Source of the DNA: Shigella phage KNP5
Length of the DNA: 64,000 nt
Sequence record: KX452698
Direction: 5' to 3' (one strand)
In this document: in pieces, positions 46,351 through 56,142 of the stretch
How positions within the stretch are numbered: the first letter of the stretch is position 1
Layout of the letters: each line of letters begins with the position of its first letter
Translations under genes and position numbers: made by a program
The notes under the pieces: model-generated
What the model was told of the DNA's origin: nothing
The model's input: only the letters and a program-made list of their open reading frames with translations
The model's database searches: none

Positions 46351-46527
46351 TCAAGTATTGTAAAACATTCGATGCAATCGCTTATATTGCCGAATCATCT
46401 TTTTAGTAGGTCGAACATAAGTTCCTACACAAGTGGTCATATTAGAGTCGGTAGGACTTCCTTTAATAAAAAGTTTCCAAACCTTACCACCATTTAACTT
46501 TTCAGTATAAATTAATTCGGTTTTCAT
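46351..46527 (-). CDS. hypothetical small protein (58 aa)
   Basis: my own translation MKTELIYTEKLNGGKVWKLFIKGSPTDSNMTTCVGTYVRPTKKMIRQYKRLHRMFYNT; TAATG overlap with the upstream gene. Confidence 0.4.
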   Translation of the reverse strand: MKTELIYTEKLNGGKVWKLFIKGSPTDSNMTTCVGTYVRPTKKMIRQYKRLHRMFYNT

Positions 46528-46973
46528 TAAAACGCTCGGTCAGAAAAAGAATTTTGAGTTTCAAGCCATTCAATATATTCTGCCGCAGCTTGCATTAAAT
46601 TTCCTTCATAACCATCGTTATTTTCTTGTGCAGCTAATTTAGCTAATGCGTATGAAATACGTTCACCTTGAAAAGCGGCTTCAGGCTTCCGAATAACTTG
46701 ACTAGTTCGTTCTACAACTTCTTCAATTTCGCCATTTTCTACTGATTCAGTATTCCACAAGCACCAATACGTAATTGGCTTATCGTAAATGTTAATAATC
46801 TTTCCATCAGAAAGTTCAATTTCAATAATTCCAGTATCAGGTTCTATATCATCTTCGCATTCTTTTGTAAGTTCACGAACTTTAAAGACAGTACCTGCAC
46901 TAAGTTCCGGCCAGTAATTACACAACCCTTTATCAGCACGATTAATTCTAAACCACTTATCTACTGTAATCAT
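46527..46973 (-). CDS. hypothetical protein (148 aa); at the position where T4 carries pin
   Basis: ATG 46973 with GGAG SD (the ORF-track start is TTG). Confidence 0.5.
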   Translation of the reverse strand: MITVDKWFRINRADKGLCNYWPELSAGTVFKVRELTKECEDDIEPDTGIIEIELSDGKIINIYDKPITYWCLWNTESVENGEIEEVVERTSQVIRKPEAAFQGERISYALAKLAAQENNDGYEGNLMQAAAEYIEWLETQNSFSDRAF

Positions 46974-47096
46974 GTCCCATCTCCATATCAATTATGTCAT
47001 TTATCGTTAGTTCATTATATACTGTTTCTTCATCAGTGTAAACCGGTTCTTCCGGCTCTGGCTCTACAGTTTCCCATCTAGCCGCCCACCAAGGTT

Positions 47097-47417
47097 TTAT
47101 AGCGTAATCCATTCTCGTACTGTCTGAGTTACTACGCGTTCACGAGGCTCGACTAGTTCAACAGTCGGAACTGCATAATACCAGTCAGAATGGTAAGAAC
47201 CTGAGCGAGTTTCATTTACGGAAACATGTACATTGTGTTTTGGACTAAAATAAACACACTGACGATATTGGCATTTACCATCTTGCACCCAGTCTTCTAT
47301 TTCGATAGGTTTAAGATAATCTGAAAAATCGAAATCATAATTTTCTGAAAATGCATCATGGTCTTCGATGATTTCGCTCAGAACTGCATCAACATCTAAT
47401 TTATTTTCAATATTCAT
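47097..47417 (-). CDS. hypothetical protein (106 aa)
   Basis: ORF. Confidence 0.55.
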   Translation of the reverse strand: MNIENKLDVDAVLSEIIEDHDAFSENYDFDFSDYLKPIEIEDWVQDGKCQYRQCVYFSPKHNVHVSVNETRSGSYHSDWYYAVPTVELVEPRERVVTQTVREWITL

Positions 47418-48077: not shown

Positions 48078-48320
48078 TTATTCCTTAATTCCTAGTACTT
48101 GTTTAAAAGTCTCGTCGTAATCAAGACTTTGGCCCGTTTGTTCTTTATGTTTGTATATAATATCACTTACTTCTGATAGCATATTTTTATATGAACGAGT
48201 TAAAGCAGATTTAAGCACGCTGTATCTATCAGGAAATTTACCATGTTCATTATAATACGCTATTGCTAATTCACGGACTGCCTTTTCAGCAGTCTTCATA
48301 TATTCTTTACGCTTGGCCAT
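48078..48320 (-). CDS. hypothetical protein (80 aa)
   Basis: ORF. Confidence 0.55.
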
Positions 48321-48624
48321 TTTCTTCTCGGTTAAATCGGTGTTTGCAATGACGGCATTTATAACGAAGAATACTAGTCTGCCAATGAATTAATTGAACC
48401 TGTTCAGTACCGCATTCAGGGCAATTAGGAACGTTTTTAGAAGCCCTTTCGCGACGTTCAACCATAGCCATAATAGCATCCCAGGCTGGAGGTTTAAAAT
48501 CTAAATCATCACAACCATGAATCTTTCCACGCATTTCCAGATCGTCTTCTTCACCAGCCATAATAATTTTAATTAGACTTGAATTACTTGAAGCTGCAAT
48601 GTCTTCTAATAGACGCTTTTTCAT
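48307..48624 (-). CDS. hypothetical protein with C-terminal zinc-ribbon (CPECG...CRHCKH)
   Basis: 105-aa ORF; two Cx2C pairs about 20 aa apart. Confidence 0.55.
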
Positions 48625-49550
48625 TTCAATACCTCAATGGCATTACGTAAACCATTTGCTTTTGCATTAAGAGCTTTTAACAATTTGGTGTGTTCGGCAA
48701 TCTGGGCTTCAACTTCAATCAAGCGAGCATTGAGATATTCACGTTCTTCGCTCAAGTTATCAGCCTTTTCTACTTTAGGTTCTTTTACGTTTGGCTTATA
48801 TGTATTAGGGTTCTTCAGTTTAATTAGAATACGTGAACTGTATAACATTGAACCATTATCTTCGGTTTCGTCATACATTTCTACTACGTCCATGATTTTT
48901 AACATCATGCGGAGTTTATAAGACAACGAACGAATAGTTTTGTTGTGCTTATTAATTTCTCTAGAGTTCATGGTGCCGAGATTACGTGAGTAATAATAAG
49001 GAACCTGGATATTAATTAACACTGATGAACCACCTGGCTTGTGTGTTACTTCATCAGCAATAACCCAATCCTTAACATGAACTGTATTTGTACGGTCATC
49101 GCCTGCGGTAAATAGTTTGCGAGCATGCTTAAAAAGCATATTCACTTGGGCATTGAATTGACAAGCAAATTTATCAGCAAATTTAGTTTCAGGAATGGTA
49201 GATAACCAATCAGCCAAATGGGTCTTTTTAACATCGTTAACAATAGTAAATTCAACCAAATCGGTTATAGATGTCGTAGATTTAATGAAGCTCGGCTTCA
49301 TAAAGTTTTTAATGTTATCGCGAGCTACAGTAGAAGATAACATACGAGAACGTTTAAACCATTCAAGCAAATTGCCTAACGAATGAGAATAAGCGTTTTG
49401 AGTATCTTTACAGATATGATTTTCCTGGCCAACATATTGAAGGAAATCACGAAGAATATTATTGATTACTGCTCTGTGTCCGATCTGATAATTACGGTGT
49501 TTAGTAATAAGACTGTCAAAATAATCAATATAATGTTTACGAGTTTTCAT
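48621..49550 (-). CDS. hypothetical protein, member 1 of a tandem paralog family with C-terminal coiled coil
   Basis: 309-aa ORF; C-terminal heptad-like segment; shared motif ...KIMDVV... Confidence 0.6.
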   Translation of the reverse strand: MKTRKHYIDYFDSLITKHRNYQIGHRAVINNILRDFLQYVGQENHICKDTQNAYSHSLGNLLEWFKRSRMLSSTVARDNIKNFMKPSFIKSTTSITDLVEFTIVNDVKKTHLADWLSTIPETKFADKFACQFNAQVNMLFKHARKLFTAGDDRTNTVHVKDWVIADEVTHKPGGSSVLINIQVPYYYSRNLGTMNSREINKHNKTIRSLSYKLRMMLKIMDVVEMYDETEDNGSMLYSSRILIKLKNPNTYKPNVKEPKVEKADNLSEEREYLNARLIEVEAQIAEHTKLLKALNAKANGLRNAIEVLK

Positions 49551-49602
49551 GTTCTTCTCACTTGGTTAATGATTTATACTCCGAGCCATCCTTGGCTTTA
49601 AA

Positions 49603-50604
49603 TTACTTAATTAACTGTAAAGCTTGTTCAAGACGATCCAGGCGATTAACAGATTCTTCCCAAATCCTTTTAGCCTGCTCATATTCTTTCTGTGCTTTAT
49701 TAGAAATTTCTAGAACTTCTTTATAAGCTTTTTCTAATGCAATAACTTCTGGACGAATTTCTACCGGTTCAGGTGAATCATCAAGATTATCCATTAGTTC
49801 CTCAAGGGTAGTTTCTTCTTTAGGAGTATTCACAATTTCTTCACATTTTTGTTGGTAAATTTCTTTATCAGTCGGTGAGTACGCACATTTCACTTCACGA
49901 AGGCTAATTATAATTTTATATCCTTCCCAACCACACATATTTTTGAAAGGATATGTATGAATACTTTTTACAGTTTCCATACAGCCCAAAGCCGCCTCTA
50001 ATTGATAAGTTATAGTGCTAGCAATTGAGAAAAATTTATTAATATTCTTTTGGTTAGCGTTTGGTGTAAAAAATCCATAATTCACAAAAATAGCTACTTT
50101 ATTTTTATCAAGCTCATTTTCTTTTACGATAATCATATCAGAAGCCAAAGGATGAATTTGACGATAATCGCCATAACATAATTTAGAAGCTGATTTTAGA
50201 ATTTGTCCTTTGAAAAGTCTGAAATTACTAATCCAACGACGAGTAAAAATATTCTCAGGATCTTCTTTATTATTAAGATGATAAGAATTAACATCACCGA
50301 ACCAATTATATCCTACTACATCTTTAGTTCGTTTAATTTCTTTCCCAAATTTACTAAGAATATCTCTGTTGACTAAGTATGAAAGAAGACGAGAACCTTT
50401 AAAGGTTTCCTTAATGTCATCTTTATATGTACGACTAGAAATTTCACAAACTTCATAAATAAATTTGTCGGAAGAAACAATACTTGCACTAGTATTATTG
50501 ATCCATTGATTGATAATAGAAATCACACTATTCTGACTAGACATAGGTTTAACTTTATCATCAATAACGCTATTGAACGATTTGATATATTCGTTACGAG
50601 TCAT
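49603..50604 (-). CDS. hypothetical protein, member 2 of the tandem paralog family
   Basis: ATG 50604 with GGAG SD (333 aa); C-terminal coiled coil. Confidence 0.6.
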   Translation of the reverse strand: MTRNEYIKSFNSVIDDKVKPMSSQNSVISIINQWINNTSASIVSSDKFIYEVCEISSRTYKDDIKETFKGSRLLSYLVNRDILSKFGKEIKRTKDVVGYNWFGDVNSYHLNNKEDPENIFTRRWISNFRLFKGQILKSASKLCYGDYRQIHPLASDMIIVKENELDKNKVAIFVNYGFFTPNANQKNINKFFSIASTITYQLEAALGCMETVKSIHTYPFKNMCGWEGYKIIISLREVKCAYSPTDKEIYQQKCEEIVNTPKEETTLEELMDNLDDSPEPVEIRPEVIALEKAYKEVLEISNKAQKEYEQAKRIWEESVNRLDRLEQALQLIK

Positions 50605-50661
50605 ATTAATCTCCTCAGTAGAAAGTAAGAACATTATACCACATCCTTGTGGCAAAGTAAA

Positions 50662-51684
50662 CTAGTTTAGTGCATTTAGTGCATTGTTCAGTTTAGAACG
50701 TTGCTTTGTCAGATTTTGAACCCTTGACTGAGCTTGTTCTAACACCTTTTCAGCTTCTAGCACTTCATTGGTCGCTTTAACGAGTTCATCATCTACTGCC
50801 TTAAGAGACTTCTCAATCGCATCGGCGTGCCATTTTTCTACAGGTTTAAAATTTGAATTTTCAGTAGGAAGAAAACTCACTTTATTAAGTTTACATGCAT
50901 CTATATTGCTTGAGCTATACATCCAAAATTTAGGATCGTTTGATGAGTAATTGGATAAATTTAAGATATCTTGCACTTCCTGCTTTTTCTCTTGCGGGAC
51001 TTCGTCCTTTCTCAAAAAATCGTATTTAAATGAAACGAACATATCAAGTTCATACGTTGTTGTGTCTAATTTAAATCGCTCAAAACGAGGTAAAATCTTA
51101 GACTGAACAGCGGCAACAACATCCATATACTTAAATGCTTCTGTCAATTGCGATTTAAGGCATTCGCAAATTGAAAGAGAATTTTTTGTGTTAGGTTTAA
51201 AGCTAATTCGCGCAGTTCTGTTATTTTCTTTTAATGGTCTTACTTCCATCTGAAGAGTATAACCATCAAATTTCAGGTTCTTTAAGTTAATGTCAGAACC
51301 TTTTAATCGACTAGCCGTCGACAAAATTTGCTTTAATTGTTTACGGAACAGAGCAATAAATCTCCATTCAATACGATAATGATTTGGATTGAAAAATCCA
51401 GATGATAAATCGACCTTACTTTGACCAACGCCTTGAACAAATAGAGGATTTTTATAATCAATAGTTTTACAGAAATTGGTGAGTTGCTCACGAGCCGTCA
51501 TTTGTGTAATATACCCCGCTTTACTAAAATTACTCACCCATTCACTGCTATTTAGATATTTAAAGTGATGAATAGCACGATTAACTTTATCAGGGTCTAA
51601 ATTATTTTCGCACAAAAATGTCATAACATTACGAGTATCGCTGGCAGTACGAACCATATCTTCAATTTGAGAACGAGTTTTCAT
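50662..51684 (-). CDS. hypothetical protein, member 3 of the tandem paralog family
   Basis: 340-aa ORF starting MKTR like member 1; motif ...FKYMDVV...; C-terminal coiled coil. Confidence 0.6.
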   Translation of the reverse strand: MKTRSQIEDMVRTASDTRNVMTFLCENNLDPDKVNRAIHHFKYLNSSEWVSNFSKAGYITQMTAREQLTNFCKTIDYKNPLFVQGVGQSKVDLSSGFFNPNHYRIEWRFIALFRKQLKQILSTASRLKGSDINLKNLKFDGYTLQMEVRPLKENNRTARISFKPNTKNSLSICECLKSQLTEAFKYMDVVAAVQSKILPRFERFKLDTTTYELDMFVSFKYDFLRKDEVPQEKKQEVQDILNLSNYSSNDPKFWMYSSSNIDACKLNKVSFLPTENSNFKPVEKWHADAIEKSLKAVDDELVKATNEVLEAEKVLEQAQSRVQNLTKQRSKLNNALNALN

Positions 51685-51692
51685 GGTATTCC

Positions 51693-52583
51693 TTAAGATT
51701 TAAGTAAATCGACAATTTTAATTAACTTTTCACGCTCAGATTTAGCTTTACTACTCAATCCAGATAGTCTGAAAATTTCATCATCATATTGTTGAATAGA
51801 AATATTCAGCTCTTCAATCTGTTTATTAAAATAATCAATTTGTTCAGAATGTTTTTCGTTACTATGAACTTGTACAGGTTTTGTAGGCAATTTAGTTGAA
51901 CTGGATTCATCCGGGCGATAAATTAAAATACAACTTGAACCAATAGGGCATTTTGCACCAGATGAATATTCTAATGTTTCAGCTTCTTTTAAAACTTCAA
52001 AAGCTAAACAGAGATGATGACCCATATTGACATAATCTGTAGAGTGAGCTCTGATATAATAATCATCGCCACGAGTACTAAATTTAAAGCATTTAAGGTC
52101 TTCTGTATTATTGGTCTTAAAAATCATTTGTTTATCTAGACCTTTAGCTAATCGAGCGCCTAATGCTAATAATCGTCGTTGATTTTCCCACAAATCCGCA
52201 ATCATTTGATCGAATGATAATTTTGGCATTAGTCGACCATAAAGGTCATATCCTTTATTATAATTACGAAGGATTTCACTCGCGTTAATACGAGACAATG
52301 CTCCAATTTTATTAAGGGCTTTCATAATGCGATTAGATAAACTCATTCCAGACCCGTTTGTTCGCTGCAAATGTTTTTCTAATCCAAATCCAATATCAAC
52401 TTTAAACTTATCTAAAATTTCTGCATGAACATCTCTGTCAATAACATTTAAATCCAAAGTTGGGTTAAATCTATGAAAAAATTTATCTGGCTCTGCACTG
52501 CGAAATACAGTCCATTCATTCATCATTTTTTTATTAACTAAAGATTTAATTACTGCATTGACATTATTAATTACTACTGACAT
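51693..52583 (-). CDS. hypothetical protein, member 4 of the tandem paralog family
   Basis: ATG 52583 with GAGGAAA SD (296 aa); C-terminal coiled coil. Confidence 0.55.
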   Translation of the reverse strand: MSVVINNVNAVIKSLVNKKMMNEWTVFRSAEPDKFFHRFNPTLDLNVIDRDVHAEILDKFKVDIGFGLEKHLQRTNGSGMSLSNRIMKALNKIGALSRINASEILRNYNKGYDLYGRLMPKLSFDQMIADLWENQRRLLALGARLAKGLDKQMIFKTNNTEDLKCFKFSTRGDDYYIRAHSTDYVNMGHHLCLAFEVLKEAETLEYSSGAKCPIGSSCILIYRPDESSSTKLPTKPVQVHSNEKHSEQIDYFNKQIEELNISIQQYDDEIFRLSGLSSKAKSEREKLIKIVDLLKS

Positions 52584-52590
52584 ATTTTCC

Positions 52591-52998
52591 TCACTCAATT
52601 TCAATTTTACTAAATATACAGAATAAGATGGAACAGACTATATAAGCACCACACACAGATTGAACTAATACCATTCCAAAGAACCAAACAATATTATCAA
52701 ACAATGTCTGTTTTACGTCGAAAGGACGTAAACTTACAGTAATATTATCACCTTTTTCTATTGAAGAATACATCTCTGGGGAAATATATTCACTAAATCT
52801 ATAGCCGTCTTTAAGTTCATATACTGCAATAAACGATAAACTAGACCCTTTTCCTTGTGTTCCTGTAATGGTATTAACTACAGTAACATCATAATCTTTA
52901 TAATGCATATAATCATTAATTGCGTAATAACCATATGCAACTACTACACATAAACAACATATCAATAAATTCAATCTTTTAATTATCAACTGTTTCAT
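52591..52998 (-). CDS. membrane protein (135 aa, N- and C-terminal TM helices)
   Basis: hydrophobic segments LLICCLCVVVAYGYYAI and IVWFFGMVLVQSVCGAYIVCSILFCIF. Confidence 0.55.
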   Translation of the reverse strand: MKQLIIKRLNLLICCLCVVVAYGYYAINDYMHYKDYDVTVVNTITGTQGKGSSLSFIAVYELKDGYRFSEYISPEMYSSIEKGDNITVSLRPFDVKQTLFDNIVWFFGMVLVQSVCGAYIVCSILFCIFSKIEIE

Positions 52999-53053: not shown

Positions 53054-53581
53054 TTATGCGAGTACCGTCTTTAACCGTTCTTCAAACTTCCGAAGAGTAT
53101 TTTGGCGTTCAGCTCTTTGCTTTTTGTAAGTTTCAATACGCTCTGAAATGAGAGAGTATCGTTCATTTACTGATTCTTTCATAAAATCAGGAATTTCACG
53201 AGAAGCTTTAATCTCGTCAAATTTATCAATAACAGCTTGCTCTTCAGCAATTAAGTTATCATACATTAAAATATCTTTCTTGATGAACTCAATATCTTCT
53301 TGAGTTACACGAGATAATTTAGATGCTTTATCCTTTTTGTACTGTTCGTTAGTATCACGAGACCAGTGTAATGTACGATTTTTATTCGTATTCTTGTAAA
53401 TTTCTACAATACCGATCTCATCGATAATAACGATCCAATTCCAACGGGATTTGTAAATTTGTCCTCCATCAACAGTGATTTCACCTCCGATTGAGATGTC
53501 ATTAAAGAACTTGCTTTGTGCCTCAGATTTAAATTTACCATCGTTGTAATTTACCAAGTTGAAAATATCTTTAGCGTTCAT
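53054..53581 (-). CDS. hypothetical protein (175 aa)
   Basis: ORF directly downstream of an early promoter and GGAGG SD. Confidence 0.6.
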   Translation of the reverse strand: MNAKDIFNLVNYNDGKFKSEAQSKFFNDISIGGEITVDGGQIYKSRWNWIVIIDEIGIVEIYKNTNKNRTLHWSRDTNEQYKKDKASKLSRVTQEDIEFIKKDILMYDNLIAEEQAVIDKFDEIKASREIPDFMKESVNERYSLISERIETYKKQRAERQNTLRKFEERLKTVLA

Positions 53582-54045: not shown

Positions 54046-55014
54046 TTATTTCAGAAGAGTAACCTCAGCAATTTCTTCCCAACCGTTTTTGTCGGTCATA
54101 ATAAAGTCAGCAAGATAAAGAGCAGTACGCAGTGAAACATTGCGTAAACGATTAACATTAACTTTCATCCATGATAATGCTTTATAAGTTTCTTCATCAG
54201 AAAGACCGCGCTTTTGCATCATGTCAGTTGAAAGAATAACATCTTCAACCCTGACCATAATTTCTTCATTAGTGTGAACACCCAAATCCAAATAAACCGA
54301 GCGGGACACTAATGCTTGTAAATGTGGAGCAAGTTTAGTACCACGGTCTAATTCGCGGTCAATGTCAACGTTTGTGATAAAAACAATCGTTCCTTTAAAT
54401 TCAAACTCACGCTCAATGCCTTTTTCTTCTAAGTAAGAAGACGCAGTGCTCCAGCAGACTTTACGGGTCTCTCCAGTGTCCAGAGCGGCTTTTAGAAGAT
54501 TAAGAATGTCCATATCAGAGAAAACATCTACATCATCAATCAAAAGGACAGAATTCTCTTCACGATTATTCCAAAGCTGCTCATAAAGACCAATACCAGA
54601 GATTTTACCATTAATGCTTTTATATTCAATGTATCCAATATCATTTGCTTTATTTAAAGCTTTATCTAAAGAATACGTTTTACCAATACCTGCTGCGCCA
54701 GAGATAATCAATGAACGAATATTTCCATTAATAATACCATTCGTCATCATTCCCATAACATTAAATCTTTTATTAATGCGGGTTTTCATATCTTCATATG
54801 ATTCTTTAACTTCTTCAACTTTTACACCATCATATGAAATATCTGATTTGTAAACCCAAACACCGCGACGTTTACCGTCAATTTCAACAAAAACTTTACC
54901 ATCTCCTTGTGCATCTACCGGAGCATTATCTGGGAACCATTCGCCTAAGAGCTCAAAAGTTCCAGAGATTTCTTTACCGAAGTAGATACCCTTATTGATA
55001 GTTACAGTTTTCAT
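54046..55014 (-). CDS. AAA+/P-loop ATPase-like protein
   Basis: Walker A GAAGIGKT, Walker B VLLIDDVD, sensor-like FITN; ATG 55014 after GGAG; own early promoter. Confidence 0.7.
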   Translation of the reverse strand: MKTVTINKGIYFGKEISGTFELLGEWFPDNAPVDAQGDGKVFVEIDGKRRGVWVYKSDISYDGVKVEEVKESYEDMKTRINKRFNVMGMMTNGIINGNIRSLIISGAAGIGKTYSLDKALNKANDIGYIEYKSINGKISGIGLYEQLWNNREENSVLLIDDVDVFSDMDILNLLKAALDTGETRKVCWSTASSYLEEKGIEREFEFKGTIVFITNVDIDRELDRGTKLAPHLQALVSRSVYLDLGVHTNEEIMVRVEDVILSTDMMQKRGLSDEETYKALSWMKVNVNRLRNVSLRTALYLADFIMTDKNGWEEIAEVTLLK

Positions 55015-55045
55015 TTTATTCTCCAAATCCGTATCAGTTGATAGT

Positions 55046-55102: not shown

Positions 55103-55126
55103 AAAAAAGGGAGCCCGAAGGCTCCC
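55103..55126 (-). terminator. rho-independent terminator (GGGAGCCUUCGGGCUCCC followed by U6)
   Basis: 7-bp GC-rich stem with UUCG loop then a T-run, directly after the stop of the upstream gene. Confidence 0.7.
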
Positions 55127-55128
55127 TA

Positions 55129-56142
55129 TCATTTATAATAACTTCGGTGGTTTTCAAGATAAACCCTCTCAAGGAAGTCATCCCAGAAACCCATGTCTAC
55201 TTTTTGCTGCATACCGTTCTTAGAAGCTTCAATGGATGCTGCTTCTACTTGATCGACCACATCTTCCAAAAACTCTTGAACAGTTTTAAATGGATGTTTA
55301 CCCAACTTCACGTCGAGAATAAATGGAGCGTCTTGAAGTGGATAGACTAAGTCACCAGTTTTGTAAATTTCCAATAGTTGGAGTCCACCACGGCAAGCAT
55401 GACTCAGAGCTTTCCAGTCAATGCCCTCATTCGCTTCAGCCTTACGAGCACGTTCGCCGTATTCAGCATCAAGTTTATTCAAAGACTGCTTAAGCTCAAT
55501 AAGAGAAAGCGTTGTTTGATATTTACGACCCAACACAGTGTAGAACGTTTGTGGACCTGTTTTCTCATGATTATGGAATACCCATTCACAGAATTCGTTC
55601 TCTGGAAGACGATGCTTAATATCTTCAACTTTAGTTCGACGCTGCTTAATGGAACCGTCTTCTTGGTAATCAACCCATTGCTCAGGGATTTGATTAACTA
55701 CTTTCAACACATCACGTAATGCGGCCAAACGAGAACCCTTAACACCGTATTTAGAAGCTTGCTTGCGAACATATCCTAAGTAGGATTTCATGTTGGTCGT
55801 ATAAAAACGAGAACGGTTGTCTTGAATAAACTTCCATACATCAGGCAAATCAGATTTAACTACTAGTTCCGGTGGAGTGTGGAGCATATCCAATGCTACA
55901 GTTTCACCATCTGCTGCTAATTTAAAGAAATACTTAAGACTGTATAGTTCATGGTCAATATCATCTTTAGTGTTTTTAGATGATGTGTTGTTAGTGTTTT
56001 TACTCATATGCTCTTTAACATTTCCAATAAGAATATCGCGAGCAGGAGGAACAAAGATTTCTTTAAAATCTACATCAGATTCTGGAGTAGAAGTTCCATA
56101 AAGATGACTACCAAAATAGCTTTTCATTACTGTTTTCATCAT
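55129..56142 (-). CDS. nucleotidyltransferase-fold (pol-beta superfamily) protein
   Basis: N-terminal GS-x10-DVD motif (YFGSHLYGTSTPESDVDFKEIFV) and a downstream hDh (VALDMLH); 337 aa; last gene before the terminator. Confidence 0.6.
   Translation of the reverse strand: MMKTVMKSYFGSHLYGTSTPESDVDFKEIFVPPARDILIGNVKEHMSKNTNNTSSKNTKDDIDHELYSLKYFFKLAADGETVALDMLHTPPELVVKSDLPDVWKFIQDNRSRFYTTNMKSYLGYVRKQASKYGVKGSRLAALRDVLKVVNQIPEQWVDYQEDGSIKQRRTKVEDIKHRLPENEFCEWVFHNHEKTGPQTFYTVLGRKYQTTLSLIELKQSLNKLDAEYGERARKAEANEGIDWKALSHACRGGLQLLEIYKTGDLVYPLQDAPFILDVKLGKHPFKTVQEFLEDVVDQVEAASIEASKNGMQQKVDMGFWDDFLERVYLENHRSYYK

Follow-up and report, generated by a model that had tools for sequence, protein, structure and literature searches.

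DSAD1 from the Bacillus phage SPbeta is a protein inhibitor of the DSR2 sirtuin, to whose sensor region it binds. One of the few phage factors known to act against a SIR2-type defence that depletes nicotinamide adenine dinucleotide (NAD) is NrdC.5 from phage T4, which has been shown to neutralise the Dsr1 defence by itself. An evolved T4 deletion mutant was unable to plate on strain ECOR17, deletion of dsr1 in this strain restored plating, plasmid-borne dsr1 shielded MG1655 from the T4 deletion mutant, and T4 nrdC.5 expressed alone restored infection on cells that carried the ECOR17 sirtuin defence Dsr1 (Srikant, Guegler and Laub, eLife 2022, PMC9391042). In the same study, nrdC.5 is called an early gene. 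The tetratricopeptide repeat (TPR) sensor of Dsr1 is reported to be common to Avs7 and other effector fusions and to be triggered by a phage major capsid protein (2026 preprint, PMC12803255). Here, the orthologue of nrdC.5 and three genes next to it are analysed in Shigella phage KNP5 (sequence record KX452698), in a window of 64,000 nucleotides, which is the whole stretch of DNA that was studied. These four consecutive open reading frames (ORFs A to D) correspond to T4 nrdC.3, nrdC.4, nrdC.5 and nrdC.6.

As T4 ORFs the four genes were known before, the counter-defence activity of NrdC.5 has been described, and the databases already treat A and B as one family. The result will be unsurprising to a T4 specialist. 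New are the evidence that nrdC.3, nrdC.4 and nrdC.5, and probably nrdC.6, form a single superfamily with a defined architecture, which Pfam and PHROGs split into three families, and a catalogue of natural hybrids and deletions.

Identity and relatedness of the genes

The window comes from a Tequatrovirus (T4-like) genome, its DNA being 95-99.8% identical to that of Tequatroviruses. A total of 686 phage records matched the 5-kb stretch that surrounds the four ORFs, with Escherichia phage KNP1 (99.8%) and Shigella phage Sfk20 (98.2%) as the best. Every gene of this stretch is on the minus strand, and gene-for-gene synteny with the annotated T4 record provides the assignments of Table 1 and places the ORFs in the nrdC-rI region. 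This is the location proposed in an earlier note on the window, which had been made from the sequence alone and had described four consecutive ORFs here. All four are present; two of them, A and C, start with MKTR, as had been claimed, and the mechanically assigned ORF starts of B and D had to be trimmed. In the case of ORF B, TTG 50655 was rejected for ATG 50604 on the basis of a GAGGAG ribosome-binding site and of the N-terminus MTRNEYI, which is kept in homologues at 40-50% identity, and in that of ORF D, TTG 52604 was rejected for ATG 52583, behind a GAGGA ribosome-binding site that overlaps the nrdC.7 stop. ORF B starts with MTR. Plus-strand ORFs inside the region were treated as non-coding, because they are short, overlap minus-strand genes and have no homologues, and an Rfam scan of the region found no RNA family.

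The assignment of the four proteins to families is supported by strong profile matches. ORFs A and B match phrog_1435 over its full length (E 2.1e-116 and 3.5e-163, respectively), and their assignment to PF26897 was made through the annotation of homologues (those of ORF B and, likewise, a hybrid protein described below, P0056), not by direct scan. ORF D matches phrog_2257 (E 1.6e-149), and PF26899 is annotated in 105 of its 105 homologues. ORF C matches PF23882 along residues 1-340 with 394.5 bits (cut-off 30; E 4.9e-118), a match that the Pfam scan did not give for ORFs A, B and D. The identification of ORF C with T4 NrdC.5 relies on 93% identity over 340 of 340 amino acids, on the equal length of both proteins and on its position between nrdC.4 and nrdC.6, as in T4. 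In many Tequatrovirus GenBank records, the orthologues of nrdC.2 to nrdC.11 are labelled as thioredoxins; this label was discarded for the four proteins, in which Pfam finds no thioredoxin domain, and the mislabelling has apparently spread from the neighbouring nrdC gene.

Protein identity among the four copies amounts to 13-26%. The closest pair, A and B, is related by a BLASTP match of E 3.8e-9 (26% identity over 228 amino acids, coiled coil excluded), and comparison of the two families as hidden Markov model profiles (HH) gave a probability of 97%. ORF C showed no BLAST match to A or B, and HH comparison with shallow profiles reached 16% for B against C and less than 3% for D. The NrdC.5 family is genuinely narrow, as a HMMER search over 1.84 billion representatives returned 13 hits, three of them divergent full-length relatives. 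A word-indexed protein search with NrdC.5 found relatives at 77% identity or higher only, while tblastn revealed more in Gaprivervirus and phiE142-type phages. Divergent NrdC.5 relatives were added to the profiles before the decisive comparison of the A/B and C families, which then yielded an HH probability of 95% in local mode (E 3.6e-8) and of 97.8% in global mode (E 5.5e-12). The local alignment pairs residues 62-217 of B with residues 47-195 of C, that is, the core and not the tail. In an earlier comparison of the same families the score was 47.4, against 17.6 ± 4.2 (maximum 32.7) in 40 block-shuffled nulls (z = 7.2).

Models predicted with AlphaFold2 (AF2), which cover B and C, agree with this relationship. 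The mean predicted local distance difference test (pLDDT) value is 83.6 for B and 67.9 for C; in the latter, the core (residues 60-230) lies at about 70-90 and the linker (230-280) is disordered. Both models present an identical order of secondary-structure elements: the N-terminal helices are followed by three strands, two paired helices and a hairpin, then by a long helix and another hairpin, and finally by the linker and a long terminal helix. In Foldseek searches against BFVD, they also have common top neighbours (E 1e-4 to 1e-7), which are uncharacterised proteins of about 300-375 amino acids from the T4-like phages Erwinia Cronus, Pectobacterium PM2, Yersinia fHe-Yen9-01 and Serratia CBH8. 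According to these data, nrdC.3, nrdC.4 and nrdC.5 are firmly established as paralogous, beyond what composition accounts for, and PF26897 and PF23882 firmly belong to one superfamily that reaches other Straboviridae genera; PF26899 is probably a third branch of it. The merging of three database families of unknown function is thus supported. The claim that all four proteins are paralogous, therefore, stands for A, B and C, while D is marginal by sequence and probable overall.

Table 1. Positions and properties of the features discussed, in coordinates of the window (aa, amino acids; dN/dS, ratio of nonsynonymous to synonymous substitution rates)
Feature	Position	Strand	dN/dS	Remarks
ORF A	48621..49550	(-)	0.12-0.30	309 aa; orthologue of T4 nrdC.3; PF26897 Phage_T4_Y04OP / phrog_1435
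ORF B	49603..50604	(-)	0.23-0.27	333 aa; orthologue of T4 nrdC.4; PF26897 / phrog_1435
ORF C	50662..51684	(-)	0.14-0.22	340 aa; orthologue of T4 nrdC.5 (Y05A_BPT4), reported anti-Dsr1 gene; DUF7235 PF23882 / phrog_2351
ORF D	51693..52583	(-)	0.06-0.17	296 aa; orthologue of T4 nrdC.6; PF26899 Phage_T4_Y05B / phrog_2257
Core motif 1, A	49089..49169	(-)		FACQFNAQVNMLFKHARKLFTAGDDRT; collinear block in HH alignments
Core motif 1, B	50158-50235	(-)		collinear block in HH alignments
Core motif 1, C	51283-51366	(-)		collinear block in HH alignments
Core motif 1, D	52125-52205	(-)		collinear block in HH alignments
Core motif 2, A	48873..48926	(-)		LSYKLRMMLKIMDVVEMY; motif of the earlier note; HH alignments
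Core motif 2, B	49960-50013	(-)		HH alignments
Core motif 2, C	51106-51159	(-)		HH alignments
Core motif 2, D	51972-52025	(-)		HH alignments
C-terminal heptad/coiled-coil helix, A	48624..48755	(-)		aa 266-309; heptad segment 259-309, reached by 2/200 shuffles
C-terminal long helix, B	49606..49752	(-)		aa 285-333; AF2 helix 285-332; heptad segment 287-317, 8/200 shuffles
C-terminal long helix/coiled coil, C	50665..50832	(-)		aa 285-340; AF2 helix 284-339; heptad score 0.90, 0/200 shuffles
C-terminal helical tail, D	51696..51851	(-)		aa 245-296; heptad score not above shuffles (50/200); aligned to the B tail in global HH
Promoter-like site, sigma-70 / T4-early type	50633..50661	(-)		directly upstream of nrdC.4; TTTACT, 17 nt, TG-TATAAT; consensus match only
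Pin orthologue	46527-46991	(-)		by position and product
Gp49.2 orthologue	47097-47417	(-)		97% identity to T4
NrdC.1 orthologue	48078-48320	(-)		97.5% identity to T4
nrdC.2 orthologue	48307-48624	(-)		105 aa; C-terminal zinc ribbon CPEC...CRHC, weak Zn_ribbon Pfam matches; 4-nt overlap with nrdC.3
NrdC.8	53054-53581	(-)		175 aa; charged helical tail; NrdC.6 profile sub-threshold, E 0.14-0.3; no relation to the four genes established
nrdC.10	54046-55026	(-)	<=0.1	highly conserved
Terminator-like hairpin	55108-55127			between nrdC.10 and nrdC.11; perfect 8-bp, GC-rich, then T-run
nrdC.11	55129-56142	(-)	<=0.1	highly conserved; RlaP-type nucleotidyltransferase, PF10127
endoVII, nrdC, nrdC.8, nrdC.9, nrdC.10, nrdC.11			0.00-0.10	

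The models and alignments predict a common family plan. It would begin with a helical domain that differs from paralog to paralog and from phage to phage, continue with an alpha/beta core in which the two motifs are collinear and with a linker of poor conservation, and end in a C-terminal helix of about 50 residues with heptad character. All four proteins show the same landmarks in the same order: a helix of the form (S)R.LS...A...L..F, motif 1, motif 2, a [KE]P[VI] element and the terminal helix. Motif 1 (A FNAQVNMLFKHARKLFTAGDDR, B NFRLFKGQILKSASKLCYGDYR, C LFRKQLKQILSTASRLKGSD, D LWENQRRLLALGARLAKGLDKQ) maps to the helix pair of the AF2 models (residues 119-142 in B and 105-127 in C), and motif 2 sits in the long core helix (185-208 in B and 169-185 in C). 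Motif 2 had already been noticed, with the pattern L..A[FL]..M[DE]VV attributed to all four proteins. This pattern fits literally in C (LTEAFKYMDVV), whereas A (LRMMLKIMDVV) and B (LEAALGCMETV) fit in a relaxed form only, and D contributes only LCLAFEVLKEA. The relaxed form, L..[AM][FL]..M[DE][VT]V, which was defined after viewing the sequences, occurs three times among the window ORFs of at least 60 amino acids, at equivalent positions of A, B and C, and in none of 200 shuffles.

The coiled coils reported at the C terminus of the four proteins received different degrees of support. By heptad score they are predicted in C and A and more weakly in B, and the terminal helix is long in the AF2 models of B and C, while the score of D does not rise above its shuffles. 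A protein of 173 amino acids (P0230), in which an unrelated N-terminal domain precedes a near-identical copy of the NrdC.5 C-terminal coiled coil, suggests that this tail is a portable module. Within the genus, tail and core are nearly invariant, and variability peaks at residues ~20-60 and 180-280.

Scans of the four proteins against Pfam, NCBIfam and PADLOC gave no enzymatic or otherwise informative domain over the cut-offs, and sequence and fold searches of the PDB gave no significant relative. PDB matches to designed helical repeats were discarded as helical low-complexity artefacts. As a separate observation, residues 30-86 of ORF A (49293-49461, minus strand) exhibit a weak likeness to the SAM-like N-terminal domain of tyrosine recombinases (E 8e-4 to the XerD-type family in NCBIfam and E 0.09 to Phage_int_SAM_1 in Pfam), with both matches far under the curated cut-offs.

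Age, selection and natural variants of the array

The earlier note had interpreted the array as a tandem expansion, suggestive of diversifying selection. Neither a recent expansion nor diversifying selection is borne out. The only DNA similarity between copies is the 12-nucleotide start ATGAAAACTCGT, which encodes MKTR in A and C and lies in a 19-nucleotide repeat with 89% identity at 49539-49557 (nrdC.3 start) and 51673-51691 (nrdC.5 start). Furthermore, Gaprivervirus VR26 and other contigs found with the D-family profile carry nrdC.4-, nrdC.5- and nrdC.6-like genes without nrdC.3. The phiE142-type phages have, besides an nrdC.3 allele at 78% identity, nrdC.5- and nrdC.6-like genes that have diverged strongly, with 32% identity for the nrdC.6-like one. 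The duplications must be old, because nrdC.4-, nrdC.5- and nrdC.6-like genes are already separate in Gaprivervirus; nrdC.3 alone looks like an addition at the level of Tequatrovirus.

Other phages hold fewer members. Yersinia phage phiR1-RT has a single one, as does Klebsiella phage KEN39 (HH 87% to the A/B family). Phages of Acinetobacter and Aeromonas are among those added by BFVD matches, with two hits under consecutive accession numbers in Acj61. The stretch examined of Citrobacter phage Margaery contains no candidate of comparable size. Altogether, the number of copies per genome goes from one to four, and the family is confined to T4-like (Straboviridae) phages as far as these searches found.

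Of the phage records listed by tblastn, 652 match A and 740 match D, while B and C are each matched by 552. The alleles of nrdC.3 fall into deep classes, with 255 records at 95-99%, 101 at 90-95% and 291 at 60-80% identity; the nrdC.3 of the window is only 62% identical to that of T4 and 61% to that of T2. Values of dN/dS were calculated pairwise and gene-wide between the window and T4 plus four other Tequatroviruses (Table 1), and those of the four genes are 3-10 times above those of the flanking genes. The four genes are under relaxed purifying selection and undergo recombinational turnover, and the gene-wide figures, all between 0.06 and 0.30, show no positive selection.

The comparison of copy number and divergence across related phages, which had been suggested as a check, revealed old copies that undergo turnover. 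In phage ACG-C40 (L009), nrdC.3 to nrdC.5 have been lost and short remnants of nrdC.5 and nrdC.3 stay. In phage G8 (L005 9054-10086), nrdC.4 is split into ORFs of 193 and 158 amino acids; BFVD holds short NrdC.4-like fragments from G8 (158 amino acids) and T2 (155 amino acids), and the T2-like phage SV76 matches in two pieces. This pattern points to the pseudogenisation of one paralog in some Tequatroviruses. In-frame fusions have also been generated. The protein Manna_094 of Salmonella phage Manna (L027 2715-3752) is an in-frame hybrid of NrdC.6 (residues 1 to ~270) and NrdC.4 (~256 to 333), joined at a shared (D/E)EI, with nrdC.5 and most of nrdC.4 deleted. P0056, found in metagenomic T4-like phages, one of them of 167 kb (L028 4001-4900, L029 2362-3261), fuses residues 146-272 of NrdC.5 to residues 129-309 of NrdC.3 near FN..VN, with nrdC.4 deleted; a 115-amino-acid ORF upstream is presumably the N-terminal remnant of NrdC.5. 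Finally, a protein of 378 amino acids from Shigella phage Sf25 (P0120) is an NrdC.6 with an internal duplication of residues 177-259. These natural hybrids and deletion variants could be used as ready-made domain-swap experiments.

Candidate functions and the place of nrdC.6

The earlier note had offered host-range or anti-defence specificity as an example of what the array might provide, and this idea has gained support, because T4 NrdC.5, 93% identical to ORF C, counters Dsr1, and because the flanking genes 49.2 and nrdC.1 encode reported inhibitors of OLD (PMC13096335) and Septu (HIDEN-SEQ preprint), respectively. The anti-defence role is right for NrdC.5 on published evidence and plausible for the other three. 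Since one copy disarms Dsr1, NrdC.3, NrdC.4 and NrdC.6 are good candidates for immune-evasion factors; the best-studied phage would in this way offer three candidate counter-defence genes, and the analysis provides a handle on the action of NrdC.5.

Taking all the data together, the explanation towards which we lean, with some confidence, is that these genes form an ancient paralog family of T4-like phages that encodes early blockers of immune proteins, with an oligomerising tail and variable specificity surfaces. In this mechanism, the family members would be non-enzymatic proteins made early in infection, a timing suggested by the description of nrdC.5 as an early gene and by the early-type promoter-like site upstream of nrdC.4 (10/12 in the consensus scan, with an extended -10). 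By stoichiometric binding, they would block immune proteins of the host; dimerisation or oligomerisation, which adds avidity, would be the task of the C-terminal helix, and the target specificity would be set by the variable surfaces of the N-terminal domain, core and linker. NrdC.5 might thus occupy Dsr1 before the late capsid trigger is made, and NrdC.3, NrdC.4 and NrdC.6 could be directed against other defence proteins or against variants of the same sensor. As the array is dispensable on laboratory hosts, its turnover would be tolerated, with alleles being replaced and genes being deleted, frameshifted or fused into hybrids.

Several points weigh against this explanation. No publication that deals with NrdC.3, NrdC.4 or NrdC.6 came up in the literature searches, and on how NrdC.5 acts they gave nothing beyond PMC9391042. 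Between ORF C and T4 NrdC.5 there are 25 differences in 340 positions, most of them located in the linker and the N-terminal region, so that the activity of ORF C towards a particular Dsr1 allele cannot be taken for granted. The Foldseek TM-scores (template modelling scores) are low (0.2-0.5), in multi-domain models with a freely oriented terminal helix. The coiled coils were called with a crude home-made heptad score and from helices in monomer AF2 models. Lastly, family-against-family HH comparison of D with the other families gave only 0.2-22%, which falls short of conventional significance.

The first of these points is connected to a different possibility, that the family members do not inhibit immune proteins directly. 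In this case the effect of NrdC.5 on Dsr1 would be an indirect one, for example if it masked or delayed the phage trigger or changed host or NAD-related physiology, and its paralogs would be general host-takeover or regulatory factors. The published evidence is genetic complementation only, with no binding or biochemistry found in the literature searches, and the conserved basic residues of motif 1 could bind nucleic acid or a phage protein instead of Dsr1. The recombinase-like N-terminus of ORF A and weak Foldseek matches of the C model to tail-completion and tail-terminator proteins (E 0.007-0.08) go in the same direction, but every similarity outside the family is below significance. Moreover, expression of NrdC.5 alone rescues infection on Dsr1 cells, the genes sit among validated OLD and Septu inhibitors, and their dispensability on standard hosts and frequent deletion in nature fit host-specific accessory factors. 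An indirect action is regarded as unlikely.

A bolder version of the direct-blocker explanation can also be formulated, in which the array is a modular anti-sensor toolkit, with a common core, a dimerising tail and swappable specificity surfaces, and with one host receptor for each paralog. The candidate targets would be proteins that bear the capsid-sensing TPR sensor common to Dsr1, Avs7 and other fusions, and the modules would be re-assorted through hybrids such as NrdC.6::NrdC.4 and NrdC.5::NrdC.3. This proposal is speculative and rather doubtful at present; if true, it would be the first example of a family of paralogous inhibitors that corresponds to one sensor domain shared among bacterial proteins.

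The low HH values of D lead to another alternative, in which nrdC.6 is unrelated to the other genes and resembles them by chance in size, helical tail and a few motif-like strings, the array being composed of three copies and a neighbour. Besides those values and the heptad score of D, this alternative has in its favour that neither the MKTR/MTR N-terminus nor the M[DE]VV portion of motif 2 occurs in D, and that Pfam and PHROGs treat it as a separate family. The A/B-D score (z = 3.4) is marginal by sequence alone, but none of 40 block-shuffled nulls reached it. When a merged A, B and C profile was compared with D, the HH probability climbed to 51% in local mode (E 1.6e-4) and 68% in global mode (E 6e-6), and with a bridging sequence added it reached 66-79%, with E down to 2e-6. 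Such a rise of the signal with profile diversity is the behaviour usual for true remote homology. In Foldseek, the B model matched the BFVD model of JS10 NrdC.6 with E 2.7e-5 and probability 1.0 in a full-length alignment of 347 columns. The alignment register is consistent across the A/B-D, C-D and A/B-C comparisons, the sub-threshold HMM matches between D and the other families are reciprocal, and the natural in-frame NrdC.6::NrdC.4 hybrid of phage Manna was also counted in favour of membership.

A bridge between both families is provided by g087 from Yersinia phage phiR1-RT (292 amino acids). When jackhmmer was started from g087 and the ORFs were left untrimmed, the A/B and D families fell together, a result that was distrusted because of the coiled-coil tails and set aside. 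When 60 C-terminal residues were trimmed and inclusion was tightened, only first-iteration hits to both families remained (E 7.7e-5 to the A family and 0.002-0.008 to the D family), both in the motif-1 region. The g087 family, with six Yersinia phage records, was too narrow for a bridging profile. On balance, ORF D probably belongs to the same superfamily as A to C, and a chance resemblance is judged improbable.

To our knowledge, Dsr1 has not been reported to signal through a small molecule. It is very improbable that the alpha/beta core is a small-molecule module of the H-NOX, V4R or Bet3 type and that the proteins act as sponges or sensors of a metabolite or immune signal: TRAPP Bet3 (6aq3) and H-NOX (1xbn, 3nvu) are the best PDB folds of the B model, but all of them are below significance (E 0.04-0.1, probability 0.4-0.6, TM 0.15-0.3) and amount to no more than a lead, no ligand-binding motif was identified, and the trigger of Dsr1 is a capsid protein (PMC12803255).

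Neighbouring genes and comparison with known systems

The orthologues of gp49.2, nrdC.1 and pin share the strand of the four genes and are located a short way downstream of them. Pin is an inhibitor of Lon. The whole endoVII-nrdC-rI block behaves as an anti-defence island, a picture that the four genes extend and that bears on host-range prediction for therapeutic T4-like phages.

Other genes of the region show distinct patterns. The nrdC.2 orthologue is unusually divergent among Tequatroviruses (71-89% identity, dN/dS up to 0.47), and NrdC.11 is present in 1516 phage records across Straboviridae. NrdC.8 has been reported, in one paper, to be down-regulated in DRT1-expressing cells. In Serratia phage 92A1 (L025 4290-5699), the equivalent nrdC-nrdC.11 region carries a gene for a nicotinamide phosphoribosyltransferase, which suggests a different answer to NAD-depleting defences at the same hyperplastic locus.

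The closest described system is T4 NrdC.5 itself. A and B show full-length homology to it (HH 95-98%), as D probably does; the three differ from it in showing only ~13-25% identity. Gp49.2, NrdC.1 and Pin resemble the four genes in being encoded in the same hyperplastic early block and strand, in being non-essential and in affecting host range. Unlike them, they are unrelated small proteins of about 80-160 amino acids, without a coiled-coil tail, and they are not paralogs.

The comparison with DSAD1 is of another kind. No DSAD1-annotated protein appears among the BFVD hits listed (50 per model, about a third of them unnamed), and the fold and sequence searches of the PDB gave no significant match of any kind; DSAD1 was not compared directly, nor was its presence in BFVD checked. 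Both proteins differ in their target, since DSAD1 is directed against DSR2, whereas NrdC.5 counters Dsr1, and also in that binding has been shown for DSAD1, while the likeness of NrdC.5 to it is a functional analogy only. By this analogy, they would follow a similar logic, in which a phage protein opposes a SIR2-type NADase that detects a late structural protein through a C-terminal sensor.

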